Virus record (IMG/VR): IMGVR_UViG_3300036786_000189
Location: 1 to 50,276 of that record
Length of the DNA stretch: 50,276 nucleotides
Strand: one strand, 5' to 3'
Origin: a virus
Lineage: Duplodnaviria; Caudoviricetes
Positions 29,447-50,276 of the stretch are shown here, piece by piece. The stretch's first letter is position 1, and the number at the start of each line of letters is the position of its first letter. Below the pieces are notes generated by a model. The model saw only the letters and a program-made list of their open reading frames with translations. It searched no databases and was not told the origin of the DNA. Both the position numbers and the translations under genes were made by a program.

Positions 29447-30124
29447 TCAAGCCCCCGCGAGCCACGGCTCCGGCGGCGGCAACGCGTCGGCGAGCGTGTG
29501 CGTGCCCAACATGCCCGGCTCGCTCAAGCTGGCATGCACATCGCTGATCGCACGCGCCCAGCGTTCATAGGCCTGTCGCCGCTCGGCCACGATCTCCGGC
29601 AAATCCCCGCGATAGTAGAACAGCCGAAACGGGCAGATGTGGCGCTTGCGCTTCTTGTCGAGGTGCAACGCGTGGCCGGTTGGGCCGCGTTCGACGGTGA
29701 TCGACGGATACGGCGTCCAATCTGGCCGCGCGCCTATGATGGCATACTCGCGCACCACGCCCGCCATGCGTCCGGTCAACAGCACGGCGCGCATCACGGC
29801 ATAGGCATCGGCTGGCGCTTCAAAGCCAAGGTTCATGCTCGATCCAACGGCCGCGCCGATGCGTTCGGAGTTCGCCGCGCCCGGATAGCCGCGCGGTCCA
29901 AAGCCAGCCGCCGCGCCCATGCCTTGCATCCGCGCCAAGTGAACCTTCTCGCGCGCATACGCCCAGTTCAACAGCCACTCCACAGTTACAGCCTGTCGGC
30001 TATCAATCTCTAAGGGAGTAAGGGATGTATCTGATAATCTCGCATGTGGGCGCGCGCGCTCACGCAAAGCTATGGGATCGGCTCCATCCCTCCCCGAACC
30101 GCTAACCGTTTTCACCACCGTCAT
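29447..30124 (-). CDS. Hypothetical protein, possible late-gene regulator (start uncertain)
   Basis: EWLLNWAYAREK...RPDW...YERWARAI...PPEPW; lambda-Q position between replication genes and terS. Confidence 0.55.
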   Translation of the reverse strand: MTVVKTVSGSGRDGADPIALRERARPHARLSDTSLTPLEIDSRQAVTVEWLLNWAYAREKVHLARMQGMGAAAGFGPRGYPGAANSERIGAAVGSSMNLGFEAPADAYAVMRAVLLTGRMAGVVREYAIIGARPDWTPYPSITVERGPTGHALHLDKKRKRHICPFRLFYYRGDLPEIVAERRQAYERWARAISDVHASLSEPGMLGTHTLADALPPPEPWLAGA

Positions 30125-30275
30125 TTTCCCTCGCTTGCCCAATGGGGAGGAATGGGGACGAAGGGACAAACGAGAAAACGACCTAGTATGTGGGCGCGCG
30201 CCGACACACAAGCCGAAAACCCGCCGCCGCGCCTTTGGCAAGTCGCAATCATCCCTTCGTCCCCATCCCTCCCCA
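30044..30275. repeat. Inverted plus direct repeats, candidate replication origin
   Basis: 24-bp IR with 1 mismatch (30143-30166 / 30252-30275); 14-bp direct repeat ATGTGGGCGCGCGC (30044-30057, 30188-30201); immediately downstream of the helicase gene. Confidence 0.65.
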
Positions 30276-30305
30276 ATATCGTCCCGGCTTTGAAGCGCTG
30301 CGTCA

Positions 30306-31832
30306 TCATGTCGGGTCACCGACCACATGCACGCCCACATACACCGTGTTGCCGCCCGTCTTGCGGCGCTCTATGCCGCGCCCGGTGAGCTTGGTGCCGA
30401 AGGTGCGCCCGGTCAGCGGATCGAGGCCTTCGTCCTTGCACCACTCGGTATAGACCTCGCGCAGCCGCTTCGCGCTCGTCTCGAACGGCCGCGCCGTCGA
30501 GGGATTGATCGCGTGCGCGCTCACCTCGCAGCGCGCCTTCAGGAACTCGCCCACGGGATCCTCGTCGGCACGATAGGCTTCGACGGCGGCGATGGCCGCT
30601 TCTGGCGGGCGCAATCCCGTGGCGAACCATTCCTCGCAGCCGTCGAGCATCCATTGCAGGATGCCCTCGGCTTCTTCGAGCAGCTTGGCTTCGAGGTTGC
30701 GGTCGATCTTGTCGTCCGGGATCGACACTGTGAACGGCACGAGCCGGATGCGCCGCCAGATGCCGCGATCGGTGCCGCGGATCACCGGCTTGTGGTTGGT
30801 CGAGATGACCGCCTTGAACACCGGCCGGAAATCGAAGAAGCCCTGGTTGAGGTGGCGCACGGTCATCGTCTCGCCGCCCGACATATCCTTGACCTTCGCC
30901 TCGTCGAGACGCGCGCCTTCGGGCGGCTCGGCCGCGCTCACCATGCGCGCACCCGGCAGGCGCGCCAGGTCCGGCGAGGCCTCGGCGCCGCCAGAGCCTT
31001 CGCGCTTGGCCAGGAACGTGGCAATGGGCGAGTTCATCGCATAGCTCGCCATGATGAACCGGATGATGTTCATCAGCGTCGATTTGCCGTTGCTGCCCGT
31101 GCCGTAGAAAATGAAGAACACCTGCTCGCGCATCGAGCCGGTCAGACAATAGCCGAGGATGCGCTGGAGGAACGCGCGCATCTCTTCGTCCGGCATGATC
31201 TGTTCGAGGAACGCCTCGAAGCGCGGGCATTGCGCAGCCGTGTTGTACTTCACGCCCAGCACGCGCGTGATGCGGTCGGCGCGCCGGCTTTCGCGCAGCT
31301 CGCAATGCGTCGAAAGCTCGATGGTGCCGTTGGGCGCGGCGAGCAGATAGGTGTCTGCGTCGAGCGCCTCGACGCGCTCGGCGAGATAGGGCTTTGACGC
31401 CGCCAGCATCGCGCTCACGCGCGAGGTATTTCCCGTCTGCACCGACCACGCATAGAGACGGTCGATGCGCTCCGGCGACACCTTGCCGGGCTTCGCTTGG
31501 AGCGCCTTCGCCTCGGCGATGATCTGCTGGCTCACCTGGTGGCCGCGTTTGATCGCGTGCGCCTCGCCGCTCTCCACATCCCAGCGCGCGCCGTCCCAAG
31601 TGAACCAGCCGACCTTCTCGACATGCATCAAGTCCTCGCCGAAGCGCGTCTGCAGCCGCTTGGCGTTGCCGAAATCATTGAGCGGCGCGTAGGACAGAAC
31701 ACGGTCGACATCGTCGCCCTCATCGGCGTCGCCGGGCGCAAACGCACCCCGCTCCGCCTTTCGCTTCGAGCCCTTGGGCGCGGCGACAGGCGTAAGGTCT
31801 TCTTCGTCGAACGGATCGCCGTGATCGCTCAT
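30306..31832 (-). CDS. P4-family/D5-type SF3 helicase without an N-terminal primase domain (508 aa)
   Basis: D5_N-like NDFGNAKR, Walker A GTGSNGKST, TNHKP and GIWRR motifs, C-terminal winged-helix-like region. Confidence 0.92.
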   Translation of the reverse strand: MSDHGDPFDEEDLTPVAAPKGSKRKAERGAFAPGDADEGDDVDRVLSYAPLNDFGNAKRLQTRFGEDLMHVEKVGWFTWDGARWDVESGEAHAIKRGHQVSQQIIAEAKALQAKPGKVSPERIDRLYAWSVQTGNTSRVSAMLAASKPYLAERVEALDADTYLLAAPNGTIELSTHCELRESRRADRITRVLGVKYNTAAQCPRFEAFLEQIMPDEEMRAFLQRILGYCLTGSMREQVFFIFYGTGSNGKSTLMNIIRFIMASYAMNSPIATFLAKREGSGGAEASPDLARLPGARMVSAAEPPEGARLDEAKVKDMSGGETMTVRHLNQGFFDFRPVFKAVISTNHKPVIRGTDRGIWRRIRLVPFTVSIPDDKIDRNLEAKLLEEAEGILQWMLDGCEEWFATGLRPPEAAIAAVEAYRADEDPVGEFLKARCEVSAHAINPSTARPFETSAKRLREVYTEWCKDEGLDPLTGRTFGTKLTGRGIERRKTGGNTVYVGVHVVGDPT

Positions 31833-32389
31833 GGCCCCCCGTTCACTGGGGTCGTTCCCATTCGACGCGCGAAGCGGTCCATGAACGCTTTGTTCCGAAG
31901 CCGCGTGCGCTCGCGGCTGCGCTCCGCCTCAAATTGAAAATAGGAGAGCTGCGCCTTGAGCAGACCCACATCGCGCCGACAGTCACCCGAATTGCGAAGG
32001 AGCGAGACGATGAACTCCCAATCCGGCGGAGCCTTCTGGCGCATCGGTGCGCGCCGCTTGACGGCAAATCTCTCGCCATCCCATTCCTGCAACCCGGCAT
32101 AGTCCGGAAGCTCGCTAAGTTGGACGAGGCCTGGCGGCGTCACATACCAGAAGCGATCTGACCATTGCAGCGCGCCGGCCTGCTTATCGTCGCCATCGCG
32201 CAAAAAATCCGAGCGGCTCACCTTGATCTCGTAGGCGCACGCGCGAAAATGCGCGGACCCGATAGGCTCAAGGGTCCAGAAGTCAATACGTCGCTTTCCG
32301 GAGAACAGTGTTAACTCCGTCGCCCATATTTTGTCGTCGGATGTGGCGATCAGTGCATCCAGAATGTTGTCCGCGCTCAACGGTTTCAT
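31829..32389 (-). CDS. MmcB-like PD-(D/E)xK nuclease (186 aa)
   Basis: RIDF...YEIKVSRSDFLRD...K...SDRFWYVTP...ELP..AGL. Confidence 0.85.
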   Translation of the reverse strand: MKPLSADNILDALIATSDDKIWATELTLFSGKRRIDFWTLEPIGSAHFRACAYEIKVSRSDFLRDGDDKQAGALQWSDRFWYVTPPGLVQLSELPDYAGLQEWDGERFAVKRRAPMRQKAPPDWEFIVSLLRNSGDCRRDVGLLKAQLSYFQFEAERSRERTRLRNKAFMDRFARRMGTTPVNGGP

Positions 32390-32601
32390 CGCCCCTCGCG
32401 ATCTGCCGCGTCACAGAGCCCGCGCGCTTGCCATGCAGCCCATCCGGCGCGCGCTGTCGCCAACACGTAGTCGCCGCCACGCGAGCGCGTGAGCAGCGCT
32501 ATGGCCTCCTCGCGGCGCAATGCGCGCGTCACCCAAGCCTCGAAGCGTAGCCGCTCGATCTCGGTCGGTGACACGGCGTTGAGCGGCACGACGGTAGCCA
32601 T
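32386..32601 (-). CDS. Hypothetical protein (71 aa)
   Basis: Coupled to both neighbours; RFEAW...AWQAR pattern seen in small phage proteins. Confidence 0.6.
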   Translation of the reverse strand: MATVVPLNAVSPTEIERLRFEAWVTRALRREEAIALLTRSRGGDYVLATARAGWAAWQARGLCDAADREGR

Positions 32602-33470
32602 CAGGTCCCCACGTTGTTCGCCGGACGATACAAAGCCCGCGGCGCGCCCTCGCCGTTCAGGACGCGCAGATACTTGTCGGTTTCGCAGAGGATGTTCGGC
32701 ACGTCGGAGAAATCCATCTCGACGCCCGTCTCCTGGCGGATGGTCTCATAGAGCGTGCGCAGTTCGGCGAGTGCCCGCCATTGGGGCAGCGCGAAGTCGG
32801 TGGCGCGTCCGGCGATGCGGTTGAGGCCGCGCACCGTGCCTGGTCCTGCCGCTGCCCAGGTTTCCACATCGTCGGCGCCGCGCAACAATGCGGTGAAGCG
32901 CATGTCCACCACGACCTGATACGCCATGAATGCGCCCCAGCCCTGATACTTCGACAGAGCTATGTGCGTGTCGCGCAGCGTCGCCGCGCGGACCGAGCCA
33001 TCGAGCATCGCCCCGATCCGCAGCCGGTCGCGCCACGGCTCGCCCAAGACGGTTTTGACCACATAATCGATCTTCGACGCCCCCTTCGTCGCCGGAGCGT
33101 TGATCGTATAGGCGCCGGTAAAGACCTTCTCGCCGCGCGCCTGGCGCATCGCTAAAATTTCGCAAAGGCGTGGCAGCACGAATTGTGGATCGCTGGGCAG
33201 TCCGGCGATGATTTCTTGAAGCGTATCCGGCCAGTTGATCCAGCGACCTATCGCCAGCATGAACCATAGATTCGGCAGACCGGCGAAGCGCTCGCGGATG
33301 TTGCGCCGAATCCAGACCGTCACGCGGTCGTCCTCGCGCCGCACATTGCAGAAGCGGTACTTGGCGAGGATCGGATCGTCGGTCCACGGCATGGGCGCGC
33401 CGCTTTCCTTGCGGATACGCATAGCCTCGCGCTCGCGGACCCAATGTCGTAGGGCCTCGGCTGCGATCAT
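32601..33470 (-). CDS. 5-hmdU DNA kinase helical-domain / aGPT-Pplase1-like protein, stand-alone (289 aa)
   Basis: ERE.MR.RK..G...PWTDDPIL.KYRFCNVRREDDR, FTGAY, GAFMAYQVVVD, GPGT.RGL and LCE.DKY motifs; no P-loop. Confidence 0.82.
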   Translation of the reverse strand: MIAAEALRHWVREREAMRIRKESGAPMPWTDDPILAKYRFCNVRREDDRVTVWIRRNIRERFAGLPNLWFMLAIGRWINWPDTLQEIIAGLPSDPQFVLPRLCEILAMRQARGEKVFTGAYTINAPATKGASKIDYVVKTVLGEPWRDRLRIGAMLDGSVRAATLRDTHIALSKYQGWGAFMAYQVVVDMRFTALLRGADDVETWAAAGPGTVRGLNRIAGRATDFALPQWRALAELRTLYETIRQETGVEMDFSDVPNILCETDKYLRVLNGEGAPRALYRPANNVGT

Positions 33471-34360
33471 GCCGCGTCACTCCTTCCCATCGGCCAGGTC
33501 AGCCCGGCGAGCTTCTCGACGCCGCCGCTCCACAGCGGCACCTTGGTCTCGTACTCCGGAGGCGGCGTGACGCTCGCGGTGACGGCCGCGTAGACCGCCA
33601 CGACGCTGTCCACGCTGCGGCCCACCTTCGGGCCGAGGACCAGCGAGCGCTTCACGCCTTCCATCAGCCCGCGCAACAGCGCCGGCGACGCGCCCGCGGT
33701 CAGTTCCGTCAACAGGTCCACGTCCTCGTCCGGAAGGTCGAAGGGCGCGGCATAGCGCTTGATGATGGCGAAGCGTTCTTCGTCGCCCGGCAGGTCTATC
33801 GGGATCTGCATGTCGAAGCGCCGCCACAGCGCCGGGTCGAGGAAGTCGTGCCTGTTCGTGGCGGCGAGCCCGATGCCCTCGAATTGCTCGATGCGCCGCA
33901 GCAGCACGTTGAGCGAGTTCGCCCGCTCGACGCTCGCGCCCTGGTCGTTCATCCGCCTGCCGCCGATCGCGTCGACCTCGTCGAAGAACATCACGACCTT
34001 GCCCTCGGTCTCGTCCATCGCCCGGAACAGCTTGTCGATGTTCTGCCCGGTCGCGCCGAGATAGGCCGCGATCAGGCTCTCCGAACGCACACAGGCGAGC
34101 GGGAAGCCGAGCCGCGCGGCGAAGTGGTGCGCGAACGTGGTCTTGCCGCAGCCCGGTGGGCCGTAGAGCAGCGCCAGATGGCGCGCCTTGAGCCCCGCGG
34201 CCTTCAGCTCCTTCTTGAGCCTGAGTTCGCTCATCCACTCGAACAGCGCCGCGCGCACGGCAGGCGCGAGGATCGGTTCCTCGCATTCCTCCGGCAGCAT
34301 GATGTCGGCGAAGGGCGAGAGGTGACGCTTCACCTTGTCGTACTCGGCGTCCTTGCTCAT
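33467..34360 (-). CDS. AAA+ ATPase (297 aa)
   Basis: GPPGCGKT, FFDEVD and ATNR..FLDPALWRRF motifs. Confidence 0.93.
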   Translation of the reverse strand: MSKDAEYDKVKRHLSPFADIMLPEECEEPILAPAVRAALFEWMSELRLKKELKAAGLKARHLALLYGPPGCGKTTFAHHFAARLGFPLACVRSESLIAAYLGATGQNIDKLFRAMDETEGKVVMFFDEVDAIGGRRMNDQGASVERANSLNVLLRRIEQFEGIGLAATNRHDFLDPALWRRFDMQIPIDLPGDEERFAIIKRYAAPFDLPDEDVDLLTELTAGASPALLRGLMEGVKRSLVLGPKVGRSVDSVVAVYAAVTASVTPPPEYETKVPLWSGGVEKLAGLTWPMGRSDAA

Positions 34361-34980
34361 GGCGCGCCATCGCCATCGGGCTTGCCGTCGCCTTTGCCGT
34401 CCTCGTCATCGGGCTTTTTCTTTTCCTTGCGGCGCCAGGCCTTCGGCAATTCCATGCCGTCCGTGCCCGTCTCCGCGCACCAGCCCTCGTCCCAGGCAGC
34501 GCGGCGCGGATCGTTCGCGGTGTAGGGATTGTCGAACACCCGCTTGCCGTCCCGCGCGGCCTGCGCGCCGGCGTCGCGCGCCTTGGCGATTTCTTCCGGG
34601 CCTAGCGCGTCCGGCTTCTTTTCGGGCGCCCCCCCCCGTGCCTGCTCGTCACCGTCCGATTCCGGCTTGTCGTCCTCGCCGGACAGGCGCTTGCGGGCAT
34701 CCTCGCCGAGCGGCGTGCCGTGCAGCATGCCGATGGAGGCGCGGTACATCTGGTCGAGCGCCTGGCGCTCGCGAAGCGTCTGCTCGTCCTCCTTGCGGTC
34801 GCGGACAATGCCCTTGATGACCTTCACGTTGAAGCCGCGGCTGCGCGCCTGCTCGTATTCCTCCGTGATCTGCTCGGCGATTTCCTTCTTCTTGATTTCG
34901 AGCAGCTCGACGCGCTCGATCACGCCCAGCAGCTCGTTGCCGATGCTGCTGGTGTTCTTCGCGGGCTTGCGGATTGCCAT
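34357..34980 (-). CDS. GapR/DUF2312-like DNA-binding protein with Rmf-like C-terminal extension (207 aa)
   Basis: IERVELLE.KKKEIAEQI...Y..ARSRGFNVK.I..IV..RK; C-terminal G.QAARDG...NPY...W.EGW. Confidence 0.8.
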   Translation of the reverse strand: MAIRKPAKNTSSIGNELLGVIERVELLEIKKKEIAEQITEEYEQARSRGFNVKVIKGIVRDRKEDEQTLRERQALDQMYRASIGMLHGTPLGEDARKRLSGEDDKPESDGDEQARGGAPEKKPDALGPEEIAKARDAGAQAARDGKRVFDNPYTANDPRRAAWDEGWCAETGTDGMELPKAWRRKEKKKPDDEDGKGDGKPDGDGAP

Positions 34981-34981
34981 G

Positions 34982-35566
34982 TCAGCCCTCCGCCGTTTCG
35001 GCGCGGCTGAAGCCCACGACGATGCCCTTCTCGTCATCGACCTGGCCGTCGAGGAAGTGCTGGCCGTCCGCGCACGCCACATAGAACCCGGCATGGTCGT
35101 CGCCCTGCACGAGCGCGACCTCGGCGTCGTACTCGACGGTTACGACGGTGCATTCCTTCAGGCAGGTGAACGCCTCGTCGGCGATGAGACGGTCGCCTGC
35201 TTTGAGGTCTTGGATTTTGACAGGCGTGGCGGCGCGGTTTCCGGTGACACCATCGAAGAGCTTGTCCAGCGCACCGCTCTTGGCGTCTTCCTCGATCTGG
35301 CGATCCCAAGCATCCGACTCGGCGGACGTCAGTTCATGATCTTCCGCGCGGCGGAAGCCAACGACGGGAAGGAAGCGATGCGGCTTGCCGGTGAGATAGT
35401 GGCGGCCCAATGCGCATTGCACGAACGGCTCCGCGTCCGTCGCCATCAATTGGCGTTCGACCTCGACTGTGACGACTTCTCCGGGCTGGATGCAGTCGTA
35501 GCCGCCATCGTCTTGGTGTGTCAGGCGGTCTCCAGCCTTCAACTCGTGCGCATATAACGTGGTCAT
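34982..35566 (-). CDS. Hypothetical protein with a tandem duplicated beta domain (194 aa)
   Basis: Two copies of LKAGDRL...C...VVTVE...V.C..G.H.L.G...VVGF.RAE. Confidence 0.75.
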   Translation of the reverse strand: MTTLYAHELKAGDRLTHQDDGGYDCIQPGEVVTVEVERQLMATDAEPFVQCALGRHYLTGKPHRFLPVVGFRRAEDHELTSAESDAWDRQIEEDAKSGALDKLFDGVTGNRAATPVKIQDLKAGDRLIADEAFTCLKECTVVTVEYDAEVALVQGDDHAGFYVACADGQHFLDGQVDDEKGIVVGFSRAETAEG

Positions 35567-38172
35567 GCCGCTTCCTCCTTGGGGTCGGACTGTGGGTCGA
35601 TGAAGTCGAACAGCGAAGGCATCGCCATTTCGCGGGCGGCGGCTTCGCAATAGACGGCGCCGTCGCGCCAATAGGCGGTGGACAGCTCGATGCCGATGCC
35701 CTGGCGGCGCGCCTTCAGCGCGCGATACGGGACCGTCATCAGCCCGCCGAAGGGGTCGAGAACGGTCTCGCCCGGCATGGTGAACTGCGCGATCGCGCGG
35801 TCCACGATGTCGAATTGCAGCGGGCAGAGATGCATCTCCTTGCCCTTGGCGTATTGCGCGCCGTTGAGGGTGCGCATGCGCGTGACATCGCTCCATACGT
35901 CGTCGTGCCAGCTCGCGGGCGGCAGGAGCATGAAGGTCGGCGGCAATTGCCCGGCCGCTTCTAGGGCCTCGGCAATCGCGACATGGTTCTCGAAGTCGTA
36001 GACGCTCTCCGCGCTGTACTTGCGGAACGCCTGATAGATCACGTCGGCCTTGAGCCCGACCAGCTCTTCGCCCGTGAGCAGCCGGTCGCCGCTGGAGCGC
36101 TGGAAGCCGTGCGCGTCCACCTGCCAGCGGGCGCGGCTGTAGCCGCCCTCGTTCTGCCAGCCATCGCGCGTGTGCAGCTTCTTCGCCTTGACCACCGGCA
36201 CGTCGGCATAGCCGTTCGACGCATCGCTGGGCGGCTTGCGGAACAGCAGGAGATATTCCGGCATGCCCGCGCCTTGCCGCGAACCGTCCTTGCATTGCTC
36301 GGTCCAGCCCAGGCGATAGGTCTGGTTGTTCTCGCGCACCACGTCGGTCGTGATCGTCTTGCGCGCGAGGAAGGCGAAGCCGTGGCGGCGGAAATGCGCG
36401 ACCGTGTCGTCGGAGAACGGGCTCACCGTCTGGAAGCCCAGCCCGGTCATGCCGCCGGGCACGATGCGGTCCTTGACATGGATCGCCGCCACGCGGCCCG
36501 GCTGCAGAACGCGGAAAAGCTGCGGCGTCAGATAGTCCATCTGCCGGAAGAAGTGCTTGTCGTCGTCGGTGTGGCCGAAGTCGTTGAACGAGGGCGTGTA
36601 CTCGTACTGCGTCGAGAACGGGATCGAGGTGAGGATCAGATGCGCGCTGTTGTCGGGGAGATTCGACACTTCTTCGACGCAGTCGTTGTTGATCGCCCGC
36701 CAGCCCGGCCCCGAAACCTCCGCGCGCGCGACGCCGAACGAGCGCTGGAGCGTGCCGCACATCGCCTCGTGGCTAAGCCCGTACTCGCGGATGATCCTCG
36801 ACATCGTCTCGGCCTGTTCCTCGTGCCGCGCCCACTTGGCTTCGAGGTTGCGGCGCGTCTCGCGCTCGGCCTCGGAATAGATCAGGTCGAGCCGCACCGT
36901 GAAGCGCTGGCCGAACCGTTGCAGACGATGCACGGCCTGGATGAAGTCGTGGAACTTGTGGCCGATGCCGAGGAACACATGCCAGTGGCAGTGCATCTGG
37001 AAATTGCAGCCTGCGCCGGACATGGAGGGCTTGGTCGCCAGCTCGGCGAAGCGGCCGTGCTTGAAGCCGAGCGCCGCCTGCTCGTTCTTCTCCAGATCTT
37101 GTCCGCCGAAGATCGAGACGACGCCGGGCACGGCGCGCTCGATCGCGTCGCGCTCGGCTTCGAGGTCGTGCCACAGGATGCGATGCTCGCCCGGTCCCTC
37201 GGCCCGGATGGCGAGCATCTTGGCGACGCGCGCGCCCAGGCTCTCGCGCTTCTCCTTGGCGGCATCGACCACGCCGAAGGCCGTGTTCTTGAACATGCGG
37301 CCCTGGCCGTCGCGCTCGCTGCCCGCTTCGCGGTGATCGCTCGGCACCTCGTGCCAGCGGATGTCGAGCGCCGGCATGTCGTAGCCGTCGTCGGAGTAGC
37401 CGAGGTCGGATGGGCGCCGGACGAACAGCGCCCAGCTCGCGACCCACATCCAGAACTCGCGCTCCTTGTGGGGATGGATGGTCAGCGCGTCGGCATGCTC
37501 GCTGTCGCGCTTGAAGAACCGCGTCTTGGCCTGCCCGACATCCATCACGCCGAGGAAGGCGGCATAGGCCAAAAGCTCGATGTACTCGTTGGGGTCGGGC
37601 GTAGCCGTCGCCACGAAGCGGAAGCGCACGCCGTCCGTCTTGACGCCGCCCGTCCGGTCGTCGCCGGCGAACAGGCGCATGAACTCGCGGAAGGTCTTGG
37701 AGCCGCCGAAGCCGCGCAGGCACGCCGCCTCGTCCAGCGACACGAAGCCGAACACGGTCGGGTCGATCTTGCCTTCGCGCACGCTCTCGTAATTGGTGAT
37801 GTTGATGGCGCCGGGGTCCATCTCGTCGGTGCGGCGGATGAATTTGAGCCGCACCGCGAAGGCGCCGGTGAAGCGCGCCGCGGCTTCCTCGAAGAACTCC
37901 TGACGCACGCCGAGCGGGATGCAGATCAGCGCCGCGACCTTCTCCTTGACCATGGCCAGGCGTGCCAGTTCGATCTGCGCCGAGGTCTTGTGCAGCCCGA
38001 ACGACGCGAAGATCGCCCGCCTGCCGCCAGCCGCCGCCCACGGCACGATGGCCTCGCGCACGAAGTCCTTGAGCGCCGGGTTCACCTCGTGCGGCTCGAC
38101 GGTGAAGCCATGCGCGCCCGCGAGCCTGATCTTGCCCTTGAGGAAGTCGATATAGGTCGCGGGCTCGGTCAT
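35563..38172 (-). CDS. SNF2-like helicase fused to an amino-DNA methyltransferase (869 aa)
   Basis: GLHKT, DEAA, TATP and QAVHR..RFGQ helicase motifs; SIPF, HLCPLQ and DPFGGLMT MTase motifs. Confidence 0.9.
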   Translation of the reverse strand: MTEPATYIDFLKGKIRLAGAHGFTVEPHEVNPALKDFVREAIVPWAAAGGRRAIFASFGLHKTSAQIELARLAMVKEKVAALICIPLGVRQEFFEEAAARFTGAFAVRLKFIRRTDEMDPGAINITNYESVREGKIDPTVFGFVSLDEAACLRGFGGSKTFREFMRLFAGDDRTGGVKTDGVRFRFVATATPDPNEYIELLAYAAFLGVMDVGQAKTRFFKRDSEHADALTIHPHKEREFWMWVASWALFVRRPSDLGYSDDGYDMPALDIRWHEVPSDHREAGSERDGQGRMFKNTAFGVVDAAKEKRESLGARVAKMLAIRAEGPGEHRILWHDLEAERDAIERAVPGVVSIFGGQDLEKNEQAALGFKHGRFAELATKPSMSGAGCNFQMHCHWHVFLGIGHKFHDFIQAVHRLQRFGQRFTVRLDLIYSEAERETRRNLEAKWARHEEQAETMSRIIREYGLSHEAMCGTLQRSFGVARAEVSGPGWRAINNDCVEEVSNLPDNSAHLILTSIPFSTQYEYTPSFNDFGHTDDDKHFFRQMDYLTPQLFRVLQPGRVAAIHVKDRIVPGGMTGLGFQTVSPFSDDTVAHFRRHGFAFLARKTITTDVVRENNQTYRLGWTEQCKDGSRQGAGMPEYLLLFRKPPSDASNGYADVPVVKAKKLHTRDGWQNEGGYSRARWQVDAHGFQRSSGDRLLTGEELVGLKADVIYQAFRKYSAESVYDFENHVAIAEALEAAGQLPPTFMLLPPASWHDDVWSDVTRMRTLNGAQYAKGKEMHLCPLQFDIVDRAIAQFTMPGETVLDPFGGLMTVPYRALKARRQGIGIELSTAYWRDGAVYCEAAAREMAMPSLFDFIDPQSDPKEEAA

Positions 38173-38474: not shown

Positions 38475-38785
38475 GCGGCGCGCACCGCGAACAGATCGAG
38501 GAAGATGCCCTGGCTCGCCTGATGGTTGCGAAGGCAATGCTGGCAGAGGAACGCCGGCGCCTGGTTCAGGATCGTTCGCGTGAGCGCGATCCGAACGATG
38601 GAGAGGCGCTGAACTTCACCGTCAGCATTGGCGCACCAGGCGTCGATGCCCAGACGCGGCCACGCGACGCCGCCGCGATCCTTGTTGACCGGAAGCGCCA
38701 GCATGAACTCGCCGTTGCTGGCGCGACCGCCGAGCGCGTGATTGCGGACCCCGCACACAGCGCAGCGTGTTTTGTCCACGCTCAT
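38471..38785 (-). CDS. Degenerate HNH-like Zn-binding protein (104 aa)
   Basis: RCAVCG and LCQHC pairs retained; central H/N catalytic pattern absent. Confidence 0.55.
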   Translation of the reverse strand: MSVDKTRCAVCGVRNHALGGRASNGEFMLALPVNKDRGGVAWPRLGIDAWCANADGEVQRLSIVRIALTRTILNQAPAFLCQHCLRNHQASQGIFLDLFAVRAA

Positions 38786-39480
38786 GCTCCGGACGCCGGC
38801 ACGCGCGCGAGGCACTCAATGAGGCCGTCTGCGAGGCGCTTGATGGCGAAACTCTTCTTAATTTTTAGAGCATCGGCATCGGCATCGGCATCGGCATCGG
38901 CATCGGCATAGGCATAGGCATAGGCATAGGCATAGGCATAGGCATAGGCATCGGCATCGGCATAGGCATCGGCATAGGCATCGGCATCGGCATAGGCATA
39001 ACTTTTCTTCAAAGCCGTGTACCACTCGTCCCGCGCGACGGTTTCACCAGCGAGCGCGCGGCGATGAAGCGCCTGTACCGCGAGATGAGACGCGGTGTCT
39101 GCCTTGCGCAAGGTCGCGACCTCGATCCGCAACGGCATCACGAAATTGGCGCGCCAATCATGCACCACCGAGAACGGCACCTTCCCGTCGAGCCGCGCAA
39201 GTTCGGCGTAAAACGCAGCGCCCCAAGTTTTCGCGTCGTCGAATTCCTGGGTGTCGAAAAGCCACGGCACCATCTGCGCGAGCCAGCGCGGCATGATCTG
39301 CGCCGGGCAAGCACTGGCCGAATTGACATCCGGGCCGATGACCGCGAGCGCGCAAGCGAGATGGCGGCCGTCTTCCTCGGCGTGCCACTTGCTTTGAACA
39401 AGGCGCCCGTCTTGAAGGGCCGAGTTGTAGCGGTCCAACGCCTGTGCTGCGGTGGTCGCAGTTGTGATCGTCGCGTCCAT
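38782..39480 (-). CDS. Hypothetical protein with an internal (Tyr/Asp)-Ala tandem repeat (232 aa)
   Basis: GGAGG RBS; globular N-terminus, repeat, then short helical C-terminus; frame preserved through the repeat. Confidence 0.8.
   Translation of the reverse strand: MDATITTATTAAQALDRYNSALQDGRLVQSKWHAEEDGRHLACALAVIGPDVNSASACPAQIMPRWLAQMVPWLFDTQEFDDAKTWGAAFYAELARLDGKVPFSVVHDWRANFVMPLRIEVATLRKADTASHLAVQALHRRALAGETVARDEWYTALKKSYAYADADAYADAYADADAYAYAYAYAYAYAYADADADADADADALKIKKSFAIKRLADGLIECLARVPASGA
38869..39000. repeat. Hexanucleotide tandem repeat, 22 units of two types (minus strand TATGCC / GATGCC)
   Basis: Read directly: 11 YA and 11 DA units, last unit GATGCT. Confidence 0.97.
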
Positions 39481-39529
39481 GGTCAAGTCCTCCGGTTGGA
39501 TGCTTCGGTGAAAGGGATGGGGCGCGTGG

Positions 39530-40021
39530 TCATGCCGCCGCCGCGAGTTGGAGCGGCGCCGGCATTTGGTGCGGCAGCAGCTGGTAGGCCAGCAGCTTTT
39601 TCTTCTTCGTCTCGCCAACGAGACGAAACCCGGCCTTCCAGAAGCAGAAGCCCTTGATCCGCTCGCCGCGCACCAGCACGCCGGGCACTTGCTTGGGGTC
39701 CACGAAGGTGACGCAGCCGAGCGGCGGCACGTCGTAGAGCGTCTGCATGATCGCCAGCGCCTCGCGGATCATGTCGGATGCGAGCGGCCCGGCGTTTTCG
39801 TTGCGAAAGATCGACGTGATCCACGCACCCAGCCAGGCATGATGCACATACTCGGCCTTGGGATAGCTCAAGCCGAACACCGCGCGCTTGTTCGTCGCGA
39901 CCAGGACCCGGCACGAGCCCGCCGGCATGAACTGCGGCGAGCCAACCTTCTGGCGCGAGTAGTGCCTATCGGCGAGCGCACGACCGTCCGGATCAGCGCG
40001 ATGGGCGAGCCTCCAAATCAT
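39530..40021 (-). CDS. Mom-like GNAT-fold protein (163 aa)
   Basis: RHYS, FRNE, VTFVD and GFCF.KAGF..VG.T pattern parallels Mom-family motifs. Confidence 0.6.
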   Translation of the reverse strand: MIWRLAHRADPDGRALADRHYSRQKVGSPQFMPAGSCRVLVATNKRAVFGLSYPKAEYVHHAWLGAWITSIFRNENAGPLASDMIREALAIMQTLYDVPPLGCVTFVDPKQVPGVLVRGERIKGFCFWKAGFRLVGETKKKKLLAYQLLPHQMPAPLQLAAAA

Positions 40022-40491
40022 GGCAAGACCTCGCGAAAGACGATCCCAGCTTCGACCAGCAGGTCTTTAGCCTCGGCCAAATCGGCATGCCATTTGGAGA
40101 AACCCGCTTTCTGCGGATACGACACGATCTCTCGAACGCCGGACTGGATGATTTCAACCGTGCATCGCACACAGGGCGCGCCGCCCCACACTTGGCCGCT
40201 CGCATCGGTCGCTGCGAGGTAGAGTACACAGTCCTTGGTACTGACCCCGGCCCGGGCCGCAGCGAGGATGGCATTCATTTCCGCGTGAACAATCAGCCGG
40301 AGCTTGGTCTCTCTATCGTCGAGACGATTCGATGTGCACGCGACCCCCTCCGGAAAACAGTTGTGCCCGATGGCGACAACGCTACTGGCAGCATCAACGA
40401 GCAGCGCGCCCACTTTGGTCGATGGGTCTGGAGAGGCGCCAGCGAAACGATGTGCAAGAGCCAGGTAGTCGCGGTCGGCTTGCTCGCTCAT
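40018..40491 (-). CDS. dCMP deaminase family protein (157 aa)
   Basis: SPDPSTKVGA, HAEMNAI, PCVRC and IIQSG motifs. Confidence 0.92.
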   Translation of the reverse strand: MSEQADRDYLALAHRFAGASPDPSTKVGALLVDAASSVVAIGHNCFPEGVACTSNRLDDRETKLRLIVHAEMNAILAAARAGVSTKDCVLYLAATDASGQVWGGAPCVRCTVEIIQSGVREIVSYPQKAGFSKWHADLAEAKDLLVEAGIVFREVLP

Positions 40492-41798
40492 GCCGCCCTC
40501 CGCAATTGCGCGTCGATACGTTCGCCAATCCAGCGCACGGCCGTGGTCGCCATGGAGTTGCCGAGCGCCTTGTAGCGCGGGCCGTCAGCGGCGCACCGCA
40601 CCAACTCGTCATCGCCGGCGTCCGGATAGGCCGAGAGAAAGTAATCACGCATCTCGTCCATCTCCCGCGACCAGTTGCGCTTGCGCGTCGGGATCAGCGT
40701 GAAATCGTCCGGGAAGCCTTGGAGCCGTTCGCACTCGCGCGGCGTGAGGCGGCGCACCTTCGCTTCCGCAATGTAACTGCGCGATGATCCACCACTCGCG
40801 GCTCGCAGGTTGGCTGTGTCGTGCGGGCCCTCGAACGCCGCGCCACCATCTCGACCTCTCAGGTCGTATGCGACCGCTACTTGGCCGCCAGCATTCTGGT
40901 GGCTGTCCTTGCGTCCCATCGCGCGCAGCGGCGGCGATATTTTCCCGACTCCAAAGCCGTTTTGGCCGCTGGCCTTGCAATCGAACGCCACGACATGCGG
41001 GGCACCTGTTGTCAGGCTATAGGTGGTGCCGTCCTCCAAAATTCCGAAGCCAGGTGGTCTGGTGCGAAAGCCTCCCGAACTATCGGCGCTCGGCGTGATT
41101 GAGACCCCGGAGCGCGCCACCGCATCGGCGTGAATACAAAGAGGCACGATGGGTATGCCGCGACCCGTCCCGTCCTCGGACGCATCAAAACCCTCGGCGC
41201 GCAGCGTGTGCGCGATCAACGTTTCGCTTTCGTAGTCTTGCCTACCCATGCCCCCCCCCATTGAGGCAGTGGGAGGCTTCGCGCGTGACGAGACCGCCGT
41301 CGCAATCGGAGTCCGTACCGAGTCCGCCACCGCCTGAAGCGCGCGCAGCAATTGTTGGGGCAATGTCTTTCCGCGCTTCGCGGCGCGGCGGAGAATTCCC
41401 GCGCAGGCCAAGGCGCTCAAAAAGTATCGCGGCGGGATCGGCCGCGTCTCTAAAACAGATGACAGCGAACACACGCTCGCGTCGTTGGGCCAGGCCGAAG
41501 TATTGAGCGTCGAGAACCCGCCATGCCGCCCGTGCCCTCGGCCCCTCAGCCAGACCTTCGCTGGGCCACCGGCACGATTGCCAGCCATAGGTTCGATGGA
41601 CGTTGTATGACCGATCGTCGAAGTGAGGCAGCGGACCCCAGATGGCATCGGGCGGGACCAAGGGATCATCGGCCCCGACAAATCCGCCCAGGAAACATCC
41701 AAAGGCGTTGTCGCCCGTGGTGAGGACGCCGGGGACGTTCTCCCAAACGACGATGAGGCCGGACTTTCCTTCTCGTTCCCGAACATGGTCAATTGCAT
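40488..41798 (-). CDS. C5 DNA methyltransferase second chain: overlapping-frame peptide fused to variable region and motifs IX-X (436 aa)
   Basis: Starts inside the first chain in another frame; CSLSSVLE...RYFLS..AC.GILRRA peptide; C-terminal RRLTPRECERLQGFPD and RYKALGNS. Confidence 0.75.
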   Translation of the reverse strand: MQLTMFGNEKESPASSSFGRTSPASSPRATTPLDVSWADLSGPMIPWSRPMPSGVRCLTSTIGHTTSIEPMAGNRAGGPAKVWLRGRGHGRHGGFSTLNTSAWPNDASVCSLSSVLETRPIPPRYFLSALACAGILRRAAKRGKTLPQQLLRALQAVADSVRTPIATAVSSRAKPPTASMGGGMGRQDYESETLIAHTLRAEGFDASEDGTGRGIPIVPLCIHADAVARSGVSITPSADSSGGFRTRPPGFGILEDGTTYSLTTGAPHVVAFDCKASGQNGFGVGKISPPLRAMGRKDSHQNAGGQVAVAYDLRGRDGGAAFEGPHDTANLRAASGGSSRSYIAEAKVRRLTPRECERLQGFPDDFTLIPTRKRNWSREMDEMRDYFLSAYPDAGDDELVRCAADGPRYKALGNSMATTAVRWIGERIDAQLRRAA

Positions 41799-42144
41799 GG
41801 GCGATCCTGACGAATGTGAGTGCGAGGTTGCTGCGCGCGTCCGATAAAGAGCCGCGCAATCCGGCGAGCGAGAACCCTTGGCAGGGCGTGCCTGCGATCA
41901 GCACGTCGGGCATCTCGATGCCGAAGCGCTTCAGGTGACGCACGCGCATGGCCGCCATGTCGCCCCACAGCGGAACGGTGCCGGCCGCGCGACCAATACG
42001 CAGATCTCGCGCGGCGTGCCGATACTTCAGCACCGCGATGGGGAAGTCCTCGATCTCTGAATAGAACGCGGGCTCCCAGCCAAGCGGCATGAACGCGATG
42101 CTTGCCGCTTCGATGCCGGAGCAGAACGATCCGAACGTGGTCAT
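41242..42144 (-). CDS. C5 DNA methyltransferase first chain, motifs I-VIII (300 aa), stops just after a G9 tract
   Basis: FCSGIEA, SEI, GTPCQGFS, ENVPG and QRRERVF motifs; ends NGGGHG*. Confidence 0.88.
   Translation of the reverse strand: MTTFGSFCSGIEAASIAFMPLGWEPAFYSEIEDFPIAVLKYRHAARDLRIGRAAGTVPLWGDMAAMRVRHLKRFGIEMPDVLIAGTPCQGFSLAGLRGSLSDARSNLALTFVRIAHAIDHVREREGKSGLIVVWENVPGVLTTGDNAFGCFLGGFVGADDPLVPPDAIWGPLPHFDDRSYNVHRTYGWQSCRWPSEGLAEGPRARAAWRVLDAQYFGLAQRRERVFAVICFRDAADPAAILFERLGLRGNSPPRREARKDIAPTIAARASGGGGLGTDSDCDGGLVTREASHCLNGGGHG
41251..41259 (-). repeat. G9 homopolymer at the frame junction of the C5 methyltransferase
   Basis: Nine C on the plus strand; removing one base joins the first chain to motifs IX-X. 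Confidence 0.9.
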
Positions 42145-42488
42145 GCCGCGCGCTCCCCGTCGTCGAGGATCGCGGCGATCATGTCTTCTTCCGCGGCGAT
42201 GGTGAGCAGGCGCCGCGCCAGTCCCTTCACGTCGACTTGGCGGCGCGAGGCTTCGCGGGAGAGCAGCGTAAGGATGTCCGGCTCGACATAGACGAGCTGC
42301 CCGCGTGGCACGCCTTGCAGCGGCGTGCGGTCGAACGGCGGGATGGCCTTGCCGCTGGCGCGCGCGGCTTTGATCACCGCGTAAATCTCGTACATGAACA
42401 CGCGCTCGGCGAGCATGCCCTGGATCAGGCACGGCCGCGTGCCCTGCTCGGCCAGCGTGACGATGCGGGTGCGGGTCGCGTCGATCAT
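42141..42488 (-). CDS. Hypothetical protein, probably DNA-binding (115 aa)
   Basis: ATGA coupling; C-terminal L.REASRR...LARRLL...AILDD pattern. Confidence 0.65.
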   Translation of the reverse strand: MIDATRTRIVTLAEQGTRPCLIQGMLAERVFMYEIYAVIKAARASGKAIPPFDRTPLQGVPRGQLVYVEPDILTLLSREASRRQVDVKGLARRLLTIAAEEDMIAAILDDGERAA

Positions 42489-43390
42489 GCCGCTGCCCTT
42501 TCCGCTGGCTTTGCAGGGCCGCGCACGGTCGGGATGGGGCGCACACGCACCTTGGCGCGCAGCAAGCCGTCGAGATGCTCGGCGAACTTGCGAGAGTCCG
42601 GGCAGAGAATTTCGCTGACTTCCTTGGGGAGGCTGCAGTCGTGACGGCAGACGCGCCACTCGAAAGCGCGATGCTCGACCAGCAGCGCGCCGAACGTCTC
42701 CGGCGCATCGAATGGCATGCACTCGGTTTCGATCAGATGCGCGGGCCACTCGCTCGCCTTCGCGCGGGCGCGGGAGATATGCGCATCGAGCCACGCCTTG
42801 CCGCTGGTGTAGAGAACGAGCCGCCCTTGGGAGTCCGGCTGCAAGTGACCGACCGCGAGCGTGTGCCCGGTGAAGGACAGCGGCCTTCCGCCGTCGAGCG
42901 GCAGCGCGATCAGGTCGCAGACCTGGTCGAGGAAGTCCGCATCGGCGAAGCGCCAGCACGAAAGCGTATCGGCGATGCACGCATCGGCGACCGGAAGGAT
43001 CAGCGCGGGCGTTCCATCCTCGCCGGGATTTTCGGGTGTGCCGGTGAGCGCGTGGCGCCAGCGCGGCGCGGCGTCGGTAATCTCGCTCTCGTCGTCCCAG
43101 GCGAAACGCGACTTCACCTTGCGCGGCTTGTCATGCGGCTCGCGCACGATGCGCGCCATGACCACGCCCATCTCGAGCAAGACGAGCTGATCCACATTCG
43201 CGCTCTCGCCGCTGCCGATCACACTCGGCAAGCCGCAGGCGCCGAACATCGCGCCAAGATCGAACGTCTCGATCAGCGAGACATACTCACCGCGCGCGCG
43301 ACGCCCGCCGCGACCACGCGGCAACGCATCACCGCCCGCGCCATCGACGCGCGCCGTAATCGCCGCGATCATTTCGGCGAAGCCGGTCAT
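42485..43390 (-). CDS. Hypothetical protein, possible divergent primase-like/replication protein (301 aa)
   Basis: ALILPV...DLIAL...TG...VG...LVLYT...WL pattern; near the start of the cro operon. Confidence 0.5.
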   Translation of the reverse strand: MTGFAEMIAAITARVDGAGGDALPRGRGGRRARGEYVSLIETFDLGAMFGACGLPSVIGSGESANVDQLVLLEMGVVMARIVREPHDKPRKVKSRFAWDDESEITDAAPRWRHALTGTPENPGEDGTPALILPVADACIADTLSCWRFADADFLDQVCDLIALPLDGGRPLSFTGHTLAVGHLQPDSQGRLVLYTSGKAWLDAHISRARAKASEWPAHLIETECMPFDAPETFGALLVEHRAFEWRVCRHDCSLPKEVSEILCPDSRKFAEHLDGLLRAKVRVRPIPTVRGPAKPAERAAA

Positions 43391-43605
43391 GTCTCGCGCA
43401 CCCAATAGGGCGTCGCGGCGGCTTGCTCCGGCGATTGTTCCGGTTGCTGGCCGCGCAGCGCCGTCACGGTGTCCGCCAAGCTCTCGGCCGCGGCGGCCAG
43501 CGCCATCGCGTCGGCGGCCTCCTTGAGCAGCGGCGCGATGTCGGGATGCGTGCGTGCCCGGCGCCGCAAGTCGATCGCGATCTGCGATGCTGTCCGCGCG
43601 CCCAT
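43387..43605 (-). CDS. Hypothetical protein (72 aa)
   Basis: Abuts the cro stop; ATGA overlap with the next gene. Confidence 0.55.
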   Translation of the reverse strand: MGARTASQIAIDLRRRARTHPDIAPLLKEAADAMALAAAAESLADTVTALRGQQPEQSPEQAAATPYWVRET

Positions 43606-43902
43606 TCACCGAGCGCCTCCGGCGATTGCCGCGAAAGGCGGCGGCGCAAGTTCGGCGGGCGTGAAAAAGAAATCCTCCGGCGCGAGCGGGATGCCGGCGA
43701 GCTGGGCGCGGGTCAGGATTGTCTGCTGGTGCTGGGTGGGGATCAGACCACCCGTGCCGCCCCGCGCCCGGTCATAGGTCCAGCGGTAGAGCCGCGACTC
43801 GTGGACCCCGGTCCATTGTCCGACCAGGGCTAACCCATGGGAAAAGCTGCCTTTTCCGCATTTGGTGATGACGCGCGTGGCGGGGCTTGCGATTCGATCC
43901 AT
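43606..43902 (-). CDS. cro: Cro-like HTH regulator (98 aa)
   Basis: GVHESRLYRW...GGTGGLIP...L.PEDF; divergent from cI. Confidence 0.78.
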   Translation of the reverse strand: MDRIASPATRVITKCGKGSFSHGLALVGQWTGVHESRLYRWTYDRARGGTGGLIPTQHQQTILTRAQLAGIPLAPEDFFFTPAELAPPPFAAIAGGAR

Positions 43903-44016: not shown

Positions 44017-44676
44017 ATGCAAAAGAACGACCTCCTTCGCGAGTGGATCGCCGACGCCCTTAAGCGGCGCAAGTATCAGGGCAAAACCCAGCGCGGGCTC
44101 GGCCACGAGCTGAACATCGGCGAGACCGATGTCAGCAAGATCATCAAGGGTCGGCGCGAGGTGAAGGCCGCCGAATTGCCTCTGATCGAACGCTATCTCG
44201 GCGAGCGCGCGCCCGTTCACGCGGAAGCCGAGACGCACGTCGAACCCGACGACGCTGCGCCCGGCTACGTGCCGATCGCCGTCTACGATCTTCGCGCCTC
44301 GGCTGGCGCAGGCGCGGTTGCGATCGATGCCGACGCCATCGGGCATGTGATGTTCGCCCAGGATTTTATCGCCAAGGCCGCGACGAAGCCTTCCAATCTC
44401 TTCGTGCTGGAGATTTCCGGCGACAGCGCCATGCCGACGCTCTACGACGGTGATCACGCGCTGGTGGATCGCGGCCAGGTCGATCCGCGCCGCTCCGGAC
44501 TTTACGTGATCCGCGTCGACGACGTGCTTCAGGTGAAGCGTATCTCGATGCACCCGACGAAGAAGTCACTCTCGCTCATCAGCGAGAATCCGATCTATCG
44601 CAGCTACGACAACATATCCCCGAAAGATGTCGTGTTCGTCGGGCGCGTCATCTGGATTGGCAGGCGCCTTGCCTGA
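44017..44676 (+). CDS. cI: CI-like repressor, HTH plus S24 peptidase (219 aa)
   Basis: TQRGLGHELNIGETDVSKIIKGRR HTH; ASAGAG cleavage-site region; GDS and VKR catalytic dyad; GRVIW. Confidence 0.93.
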   Translation: MQKNDLLREWIADALKRRKYQGKTQRGLGHELNIGETDVSKIIKGRREVKAAELPLIERYLGERAPVHAEAETHVEPDDAAPGYVPIAVYDLRASAGAGAVAIDADAIGHVMFAQDFIAKAATKPSNLFVLEISGDSAMPTLYDGDHALVDRGQVDPRRSGLYVIRVDDVLQVKRISMHPTKKSLSLISENPIYRSYDNISPKDVVFVGRVIWIGRRLA

Positions 44677-48896: not shown

Positions 48897-49189
48897 CCGA
48901 CGCGCCGCTCCCAACCCCGGAGGCCGAGCCCCGCATCGGGGCGAGCGAGATCTGCGTGATTGCCAAGCTGTCCCGTGCGACCTTGGGTCGCCGGGTTCGG
49001 GCAAAGCGGTTTCCATCCCCAATAGACAAGGGCCGGGAGCAGCTTTTCGACCGCCGCGCGGCCTATCAGGCCCTTGGCATCCTCGCGAAGGAGGACAATC
49101 ATGGCGACGAAAACCCTTGGGAGAGGGGCGCCCTTGCCCTCCACGACCGTAAAGCTGCCCCCCTACGTCGTTCTCCAGCGTCGCGGTGA
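48893..49189 (+). CDS. xis: Excisionase / AlpA-like HTH (98 aa)
   Basis: LSRATL.R.VR..RFP.P; overlaps the integrase start. Confidence 0.72.
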   Translation: MTDAPLPTPEAEPRIGASEICVIAKLSRATLGRRVRAKRFPSPIDKGREQLFDRRAAYQALGILAKEDNHGDENPWERGALALHDRKAAPLRRSPASR

Positions 49190-50276
49190 CGGGCGAACCG
49201 CCTTCTATTTCCAGGTGCCGAAGCGATTGAGGCCGGACGGCTGGTCGGGCGCGTATCGCCTGCCGCTCGATCACATGAAGCGCACCGGCGCCGGCGACGC
49301 CGCCGAACTCGCCGCCGTGACGGCGGACGCCGACACCTTCCTGCGCCGTCTCAAGGCCGAGCGATCGGGCCAGCCGGAGCATTATCGGCTCTACACGTTG
49401 CCGTGGCTGATCCAATCCTTCGATCAGAAGATGAAGACGAAGGAGCGCGCGCCGCGCACGCTCACCGGATACGCCTATGCGGCGCGCCAGGTCGAGGCGT
49501 GGTCGCAGGAATCGGGACACCCGCATGTGCGCCTGATCACGCGCCCAGCCGTGCTGCAGTTCCTGTCGACCATGGACGCGACGCCGATCAAGCGCCGCTT
49601 CGTGGCCTCGTATCTGCGCAGCCTCATGACGCACGCGATGGACAAGGGATTGCGCACCGACAATCCCGCAATCCGCCTCGGCCTCGAAACGCCTGAGGCG
49701 AAGGTTCACATCTGGAGCGATGCCGAGCTCCAGACGATGCTCACCGCCGCCGATGAGTTGGGCCTCGAAGGCGTGGCCACCGCCATGCAGATCGCCCACG
49801 ATGAAGGCCCGCGGCCGGGCGACATCCTCGGCTTCCAGAAGCATCGCGACTTCAATGTGCGCGACTGGACCTTCCGTTACTTCCAGAACAAGACGGGGGG
49901 ATGGGTTGTGTCGCCGGCGGGACGGCGGGTGCGCGAGCGCCTGGCGCAGCAGCCGGACACCCAGCTCATGCTGGTGATCAACCCGCGCACGATGAAGCGC
50001 TACAACGAGCGCGTATTCACCCGCGACTTCGACCGCCTGCGCACCAAGACCGGGTTGACGGAACTCAACTTCCGGCACCTTCGGCACACCTTCGTGGTAA
50101 AGTGCAAGCGGGCGGGACTCGACGAGTTCGAGATCGCCTCCAAGACCGGGCACTCGGCCAAATCCGTCCGCGATATGCTGGCCCGACATTACTTGCCGCA
50201 CGATAGCGAAGTTGCTACGAACGCCACCGCAAAGATCGAGGCCTACCGGGAACGGAAGTTGGACGCCAAAGTCTGA
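49101..50276 (+). CDS. int: Tyrosine recombinase / integrase (391 aa)
   Basis: AGGAGG RBS; GPRPGD (R), QNKTG (K), RHLRHT, TGH and RHY (Y) catalytic residues. Confidence 0.93.
   Translation: MATKTLGRGAPLPSTTVKLPPYVVLQRRGDGRTAFYFQVPKRLRPDGWSGAYRLPLDHMKRTGAGDAAELAAVTADADTFLRRLKAERSGQPEHYRLYTLPWLIQSFDQKMKTKERAPRTLTGYAYAARQVEAWSQESGHPHVRLITRPAVLQFLSTMDATPIKRRFVASYLRSLMTHAMDKGLRTDNPAIRLGLETPEAKVHIWSDAELQTMLTAADELGLEGVATAMQIAHDEGPRPGDILGFQKHRDFNVRDWTFRYFQNKTGGWVVSPAGRRVRERLAQQPDTQLMLVINPRTMKRYNERVFTRDFDRLRTKTGLTELNFRHLRHTFVVKCKRAGLDEFEIASKTGHSAKSVRDMLARHYLPHDSEVATNATAKIEAYRERKLDAKV

Follow-up and report, generated by a model that had tools for sequence, protein, structure and literature searches.

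Clade 1 (PF18723) and clade 2 (PF18724) of the aGPT-Pplase proteins are paralogues known from phages that hypermodify thymidine. In SP10, phiW-14, M6 and ViI, 5-hydroxymethyldeoxyuridine (5-hmdU) is converted to a hypermodified base or to thymine (PMC8989533). Clade 2 (PaMx11 gp46/PUGT, M6 gp51) comprises amino acid:DNA transferases, glycine:DNA in the case of PaMx11 gp46, and depends on 5-phosphomethyldeoxyuridine (5-PmdU) made by the 5-hmdU DNA kinase (M6 gp54; PF18748). The clade-2 cysteine attacks C6 of the base (PMC11472151, where Cys247 is catalytic; PMC13458397), the intermediate trapped with borohydride yields thymidine, and the known transfer requires an activated 5-hydroxymethyl group (PMC8989533). 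Clade 1 is represented by M6 gp55, ViI gp160, phiW-14 gp72 and the C-terminal domain of SP10 gp186; amino acids are still transferred without M6 gp55 (PMC8989533). In hypermodifying phages, clade 1 sits with a deoxyuridine monophosphate (dUMP) hydroxymethylase, a kinase or glycosyltransferase, and the phage's own polymerase. Here we analyse a clade-1 gene, hereafter the target, that stands alone in a temperate phage. It lies in a 50,276-nt stretch of viral DNA (Caudoviricetes; IMG/VR record IMGVR_UViG_3300036786_000189, positions 1 to 50,276), which as a whole we call the window.

Clade-1 homologues have also been described in bacteria and fungi (PMC5889632) and, with thymidylate synthase, in pelagiphages (PMC9599517). 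A validated anti-phage system, DS-4, consists of a thymidylate synthase, a deoxynucleoside monophosphate (dNMP) kinase, a PF18723 protein, TIR/NDT and NMAD2 (PMC13092281, Table S8). Like the target, the DS-4 protein occurs outside lytic hypermodifying phages; unlike the target, it is part of a cellular system of five genes, one of which encodes a thymidylate synthase.

The stand-alone PF18723 gene and its genome

The match of the target to PF18723 (HMUDK_hel) covers positions 6-276 of the 281 in the profile (E 7.7e-46; 157 bits, curated cut-off 25), and phrog_2396 is matched as well (E 1e-63). The initial annotation, made from the sequence without database searches, had placed the gene in this helical family, and the full-length hidden Markov model match confirms that placement. 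The domain spans residues 6-272 of 289, and the Pfam scan returned no second family, no P-loop kinase domain and no PF18724 match. The target protein is not a kinase. The Pfam name of the family stems from the fusion in SP10 gp186 (PMC5889632), whose kinase domain is active by itself (PMC8989533). Identity is 39% to M6 gp55 and 44% to the protein of Rhizobium phage RHph_TM26, and no cultured phage in the collection searched has a protein more than 45% identical.

The residues that characterise the family (F-x-N-x-x-R-x-x-D, GPG and C-E-x-x-K) are present in the target as F40, N42, R45, D48, G209-P210-G211, C262, E263 and K266. Five of them (R45, D48, C262, E263 and K266) are invariant in 52 of 52 rows of the solo group described below and in 50 of 50 pathway rows, and these five together with N79, F181, D189 and G209 are retained in essentially all solo and pathway rows. 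The ratio of non-synonymous to synonymous substitution rates was 0.08-0.22 in nine pairs, which rules out a pseudogene or neutral relic. The structure model (predicted local distance difference test score 93.3) is all helical, and its predicted fold resembles that of helix-hairpin-helix (HhH) glycosylases. Among 828 chains, the top structural rows were gp46 and HhH glycosylases, with clade-2 PaMx11 gp46 as the best match (8z2n; Z 11.4, root-mean-square deviation 4.1, 227 aligned residues, 8% identity). A sequence search of solved structures gave no match to the target.

Whole-genome profile searches support the earlier statement that the usual thymidine hypermodification pathway is missing beside the gene. 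The genome holding the prophage (87.8% complete) has a single full-length match to the thymidylate synthase profile PF00303, sited on another contig, and a custom profile detected no dUMP hydroxymethylase within 10.5 kb of the target. There were no genome-wide matches to the 5-hmdU kinase (PF18748 and a custom profile) or to ADDT, the clade-2 transferase; the custom kinase and ADDT profiles detected both genes in control phages, from whose loci they were partly built. Tet_JBP (PF12851) gave no match in this genome (0/1) or in the record set (0/42), in searches that gave no positive control. The absence of a DNA polymerase from the window, also noted initially, holds for families A and B among the 50 window open reading frames (ORFs) scanned in Pfam and PHROGs. 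The target is an intact PF18723 member under purifying selection, outside any hypermodification pathway here.

A lineage of solo clade-1 genes

We identified 1,270 target homologues among 3,188 candidates. Genes were called and clustered in 174 loci and in regions of related genomes, and 300 neighbour proteins were annotated. After identical proteins were merged and partial rows dropped, the tree held 117 rows, with the window protein in a group of 52 whose boundary was set after the labels were seen. This solo group covers about 50 loci, 48-70% identical, in variable early regions of phages. A thymidylate-synthase-like gene was found within 8 kb in 1 of 52 solo loci versus 49 of 56 other phage loci, and in 0/32 versus 27/27 when at least 3 kb of flank was available on both sides. 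Whole viral records gave the same picture. PF00303 occurs in 1 of 29 solo records (1/9 of those at least 90% complete) versus all 13 controls, which were chosen for having it. The kinase was found in none of the 29, barring one 24-residue Walker A match, versus 7/13 controls, ADDT in 0/29 versus 5/13, and TAGT glycosyltransferase in 0/29 versus 6/13. Integrase genes (10/29 versus 0/13) and proviruses (9/29 versus 0/13) were found among the solo records. By both the locus and the viral-record counts, a gene acting without its usual pathway is a property of a conserved lineage and not of the window alone. The exception is the solo record G323 (L256:5070-8615), where a divergent thymidylate-synthase-like gene, about 14 kb from the target homologue, stands beside a ThyX gene in the company of a deoxycytidine monophosphate (dCMP) deaminase fusion and a kinase-like gene.

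No partner is conserved around the solo genes. The commonest neighbour cluster is present in 8 of 72 loci. Genes for DNA methyltransferases, DUF5131 and Mom proteins, primases and integrases are found repeatedly but infrequently. A hidden conserved neighbour was sought among the 300 neighbour proteins scanned, and none emerged. These data bear on the idea that the pathway is complete but concealed, with diverged or host-supplied enzymes making 5-hydroxymethyluracil (5-hmU) and the gene in its usual role. Such a pathway could draw on the many neighbours that match no family, on the dCMP deaminase of the window, on the missing part of the genome, on enzymes as divergent and distant as those of G323, or on a Tet_JBP protein, for which the searches had no positive control. 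However, the PF00303 counts, the lack of any recurring unannotated neighbour and the lack of a polymerase in the prophage argue against it, and we regard a concealed pathway as decidedly unlikely.

Judged from the tree, the solo group probably arose from kinase-linked pathway phages. Its support is 0.91, with a Shimodaira-Hasegawa-like approximate likelihood ratio test value of 87 on 47 rows; adding the fusions lowers it to 0.62 and brings five kinase-linked rows into the group. Strict monophyly is not established on these sequences, as support varies with the row set. A close copy of the target was present in 4 of 300 genomes of the same order and is thus rare. We found nothing on solo clade 1 in the portions covered of PMC13229309, PMC13697223, PMC7824862 and 10.1101/2025.10.29.685425. 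Solo or cellular occurrences may already figure in Iyer et al. 2013, where the family was defined, which limits the novelty of the lineage. Another branch of the tree also contains a solo PF18723 gene (L282:9757-10617; G651:C14); it lies in a chromosomal region near the genes of ribosomal proteins S9 and L13, and 20 kb of sequence there held no pathway gene. The closest named homologue belongs to a prophage (L001, L003, 5948-8600) that carries reverse transcriptase, bAvd and Mtd-like genes, that is, a diversity-generating retroelement.

Longer PF18723 homologues numbered nine among 4,299 candidates: four were fused to DNA polymerase A, two to a Toprim primase, one to a RepB primase and helicase and one to a weakly matched primase-polymerase, and one had nothing assigned. 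Eight of the nine are thereby joined to primase, helicase or polymerase domains, in several unrelated elements, although fusions seen on a single contig may be artefacts. Four long forms fall in or beside the wider group of the window protein in the tree. The polymerase fusion L150 (1591-4215) has no thymidylate synthase in 5.2 kb, and no viral contig with a polymerase-fused form was found.

Cellular PF18723 loci (L199-L202, L272-L279, L005-L015) contain helix-turn-helix (HTH), IrrE-like peptidase, MazG-C or thymidylate-synthase-like genes and resemble predicted or validated defence systems. In relatives of the host, one cellular PF18723 gene lies beside a thymidylate-synthase-like gene (L200, a genome of the same genus) and others beside MazG-C. 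Identity between the window protein and the cellular proteins in the set of loci is about 25%, and the latter carry Thr in place of Cys41. No DS-4-like operon surrounds the target, whose neighbours are phage replication and accessory genes with no PADLOC match.

The prophage operon and the neighbouring genes

The window is a lambda-like temperate phage within a bacterial contig (G000:C30). Besides terminase gpA, portal, capsid and tail genes it has a CI-like repressor, and its right end carries an integrase (Table 1). Its temperate nature and the dCMP deaminase gene had been passed over in the initial annotation. The host is likely an alphaproteobacterium, because records of Rhizomicrobium and Bradyrhizobium supply the nearest named homologues and a GapR-like gene is present in the prophage. 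The target belongs to a long leftward operon that starts at the repressor region, takes in methyltransferases, the dCMP deaminase and the D5 primase, and extends to the terminase.

Table 1. Features of the window discussed in the text
Feature	Position	Strand	Evidence
phrog_5429 'DNA repair protein' gene (MmcB-like in the initial annotation); incidental neighbour	31829..32389	-	PHROGs, E 8.4e-27; no Pfam match
D5-type primase-helicase of the prophage; target operon	30306..31832	-	Pfam/PHROGs
71-aa ORF with no known family, between target and MmcB-like gene	32386..32601	-	Pfam/PHROGs scan
Target: stand-alone PF18723 (aGPT-Pplase clade 1) gene, 289 aa; putative catalytic Cys262 in DVPNILCETDKY	32601..33470	-	Pfam, PHROGs, model, alignments
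AAA+ ATPase, IetA-like below cut-off; incidental neighbour	33467..34360	-	PF00004, E 1.5e-27
GapR-like DNA-binding and RMF/CrpP-like domains; conserved partner of the AAA gene	34357..34980	-	Pfam, relatives
Helicase fused to N6/N4 DNA methyltransferase; target operon	35563..38172	-	Pfam/PHROGs
dCMP deaminase; target operon	40018..40491	-	Pfam/PHROGs
CI-like repressor (HTH and S24), divergent from the target operon	44017..44676	+	Pfam/PHROGs, gene order
Tyrosine integrase; marks the element as temperate	49134..50276	+	Pfam/PHROGs scan

The initial annotation drew attention to an ATGA coupling between the target and the AAA+ ATPase gene and to an MmcB-like nuclease gene just downstream. The overlap with the ATPase gene is real; however, it is not a sign of partnership, because 11 of 18 junctions in the operon share ATGA. 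The six closest relatives of the ATPase (44-68% identical) all adjoin a GapR/RMF-like gene and none adjoins a target homologue. The remaining three AAA matches among the 52 loci are longer proteins that cluster loosely, two of them, L103 and L105, at 24-27% identity, and a genome search with phrog_3757 returned mainly housekeeping AAA genes. The MmcB-like gene is near the target, but one gene further away than described, with the 71-aa ORF intervening; its label comes from the initial annotation and from no search here. It accompanies the target in 2 of 52 loci, the window included, and none of seven MmcB-like relatives has a target homologue nearby. A link of the target to either gene is not supported.

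Several other features of the prophage deserve mention. The IetA-like AAA ATPase lacks its protease and lies behind the GapR and RMF/CrpP-like gene (33467-34980), a pair that recurs in six other loci. A C5-cytosine methyltransferase gene (40488-42144, minus strand) is interrupted by a frameshift in a nine-G stretch at about 41251-41259, its later motifs running on in the frame of ORF 40488-41798. The frameshift could reflect phase variation or mutation. Contigs of the possible source run carry the same letters there; they showed zero differences from the window over 30000-37793 and 38922-45000 and are not independent. An IS1595-family transposase gene marks the left edge of the prophage (1281-2198), and an ORF at 38782-39480 encodes a low-complexity YADA/DADA repeat with no family match. 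A promoter scan returned 0 sites and was uninformative.

Possible activities of the solo protein

We tentatively favour a reading in which the target, unaided by partners, serves in the lytic phase as a cysteine-dependent eraser, turning 5-hmU into thymine in the phage's own newly made DNA; it is a possibility and not yet the probable answer. The HhH fold would bind DNA and flip out the pyrimidine, as the clade-2 paralogue does. Cys262 would then add to C6, water would leave from the hydroxymethyl group to form an exocyclic methylene, and a hydride donor would reduce the methylene to thymine. The phage would not make the 5-hmU itself: a DS-4-like host defence that makes modified deoxyuridine nucleotides would provide it, or else oxidation of thymine, another possible source of the base. 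By analogy, the host could supply the substrate, because DS-4 pairs PF18723 with a thymidylate synthase. Erasure would spare phage DNA from modification-dependent effectors or from host glycosylases, which excise 5-hmdU (PMC6449724). The position in a lytic operon and the fusions to replication proteins suggest that the protein works on DNA newly made by the element itself.

The distribution of clade 1 in known phages fits an enzyme that converts 5-hmU directly to thymine. Of five phages compared, SP10 and phiW-14 have PF18723 (2/5); SPO1, CP-51 and CampHawk lack it, and all three carry a hydroxymethylase-like gene. SPO1 keeps 5-hmdU and ViI retains a little (PMC6449724). In phiW-14, leftover 5-hmU is turned into thymine by a mechanism stated to be unknown (PMC5977210). 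Also in favour of an eraser, though indirectly, are the structural match to gp46, the invariance of Cys262 and the other shared residues, the thymidine obtained by borohydride trapping in clade 2, and the dispensability of M6 gp55 in amino-acid transfer. In six control phages, of which three are 100% complete, clade 1 occurs with a hydroxymethylase and a glycosyltransferase and with no kinase or ADDT; therefore, clade 1 can work without phosphorylation. The kinase that the initial annotation listed with the family is not obligatory even in pathway phages (7/13 controls). The combination of hydroxymethylase, clade 1 and TAGT glycosyltransferase without kinase occurs in many uncultured phages, in all in 20 of 56 loci (L053, L054, L058, L060, L067, L075 and others) and would predict glycosylated 5-hmU, which was called unreported in phages as of 2019 (PMC6449724).

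A number of points weigh against an eraser. The papers located in our literature search describe neither a function nor an activity for a clade-1 protein. The hydride donor is unexplained because the all-helical model has no nucleotide-binding domain. No source of 5-hmU was found in the genome with the PF00303, kinase, ADDT and Tet_JBP profiles, and the portions of PMC13092281 covered do not say what the DS-4 thymidylate synthase produces or whether DS-4 makes 5-hmdU. The five-phage comparison is small, its three negatives are related, and among these three the base content covered is that of SPO1. The Z of 11.4 to gp46 is below the tool's caution level for helical folds, with MjOgg close behind at Z 10.2. 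A profile-profile comparison places Cys262 in the C-terminal helix register of the clade-2 (ADDT) cysteine, but the alignment is weak (probability 15.7). Of the 52 solo rows, 51 have Pro at position 258, four residues before the cysteine, where 49 of 50 pathway rows have Gln/Glu, so the specificity of the solo proteins may have changed. Finally, the closest pathway relatives are kinase-linked rather than glycosyltransferase-linked, and the nearest of them, G330 and G331, have kinases and no ADDT. SP10 likewise has no ADDT gene yet makes glutamylthymine. Clade 1 may be a transferase in phages of the SP10/G330/G331 type.

The last points lead to a writer, in which Cys262 would activate an unmodified or methylated pyrimidine in the phage's own DNA and add a host metabolite, with no partners; the result would be an anti-restriction mark, as with the neighbouring methyltransferases. 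That the clade-2 paralogue is a transferase, that SP10 lacks ADDT and that the Gln-to-Pro change suggests an altered pocket are all in keeping with this. So are the neighbours, among which MT-A70 (7/52 loci), C5 methyltransferase (3/52) and DUF5131 (6/52) genes occur, as do Dam, Mom and FkbM genes. However, methylases may simply be frequent cargo in such regions, and no neighbour family is conserved. Moreover, an activated 5-hydroxymethyl group is required for the transfer that is known (PMC8989533), and searches of the solo records for hydroxymethylase, kinase and TET found none. We consider a writer doubtful.

The Pro258 change bears equally on a reader or shield that would bind pyrimidines bearing a modification or damage and perhaps hold them by means of the cysteine, with no turnover. 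Pro258 aligns with the metal-binding Glu of clade 2, and Pro258 and Asn259 stand where clade 2 has its metal ligands Glu243 and Thr244, so the ligand pair is absent from the target. The loss of Gln/Glu at this position, the HhH DNA-binding fold and the lack of a cofactor-binding domain are what binding alone would predict. The polar and charged residues common with pathway members are fully kept, and retained catalysis fits them better; a reader or shield seems quite improbable. A DNA glycosylase excising a modified or damaged base is another reading that the fold invites, since the Foldseek search with the model placed 8-oxoguanine glycosylases on top (no row at E <= 0.001), MjOgg follows gp46 closely, and HhH-fold glycosylases act in defence (10.1101/2025.10.29.685425). 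Against it, the positions of the glycosylase catalytic Lys in the HhH and Asp after the GP-rich loop correspond to the invariant Phe181 and Gly209 when compared by eye with the motif of the host endonuclease III, a hint only, as the computed alignment (probability 0.4) is not significant. Excision is, in our view, very unlikely.

Besides a different modification chemistry, the initial annotation offered an attacker of competing phages, which would strip or cross-link 5-hmU in their DNA for host restriction. Its case lies in the service of the family in a validated bacterial defence system and in the proviruses among the solo records. It is weakened by the location of the gene in a lytic operon rather than a lysogeny cassette: the target is co-directional with the primase and terminase and divergent from the repressor and, from gene order, is likely silent in lysogeny. 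The fusions to the element's own replication proteins, the lack of a PADLOC match and the distant cellular clade of the DS-4 protein also speak against an attacker, which we think improbable.

Returning to the eraser, its most specific form is that clade 1 is the missing polymer-level 5-hmU reductase, carried alone by a temperate lineage as a counter-defence against a host-imposed, DS-4-like mark. Although unlikely as stated, this form would amount to direct reversal of oxidised thymine in DNA, with the solo protein the simplest one to assay. Clade 1 is the sole shared pathway gene for which the literature found gives no function, and the conversion of leftover 5-hmU to thymine on the DNA polymer of hypermodifying phages is a step of stated unknown mechanism (PMC5977210). 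The conserved, partner-free lineage offers a single small protein for assay. If the target is a solo writer, its chemistry would be new; if it is an eraser, it would reverse a base change directly in a new way, might act in anti-defence and could be used to map 5-hmU.

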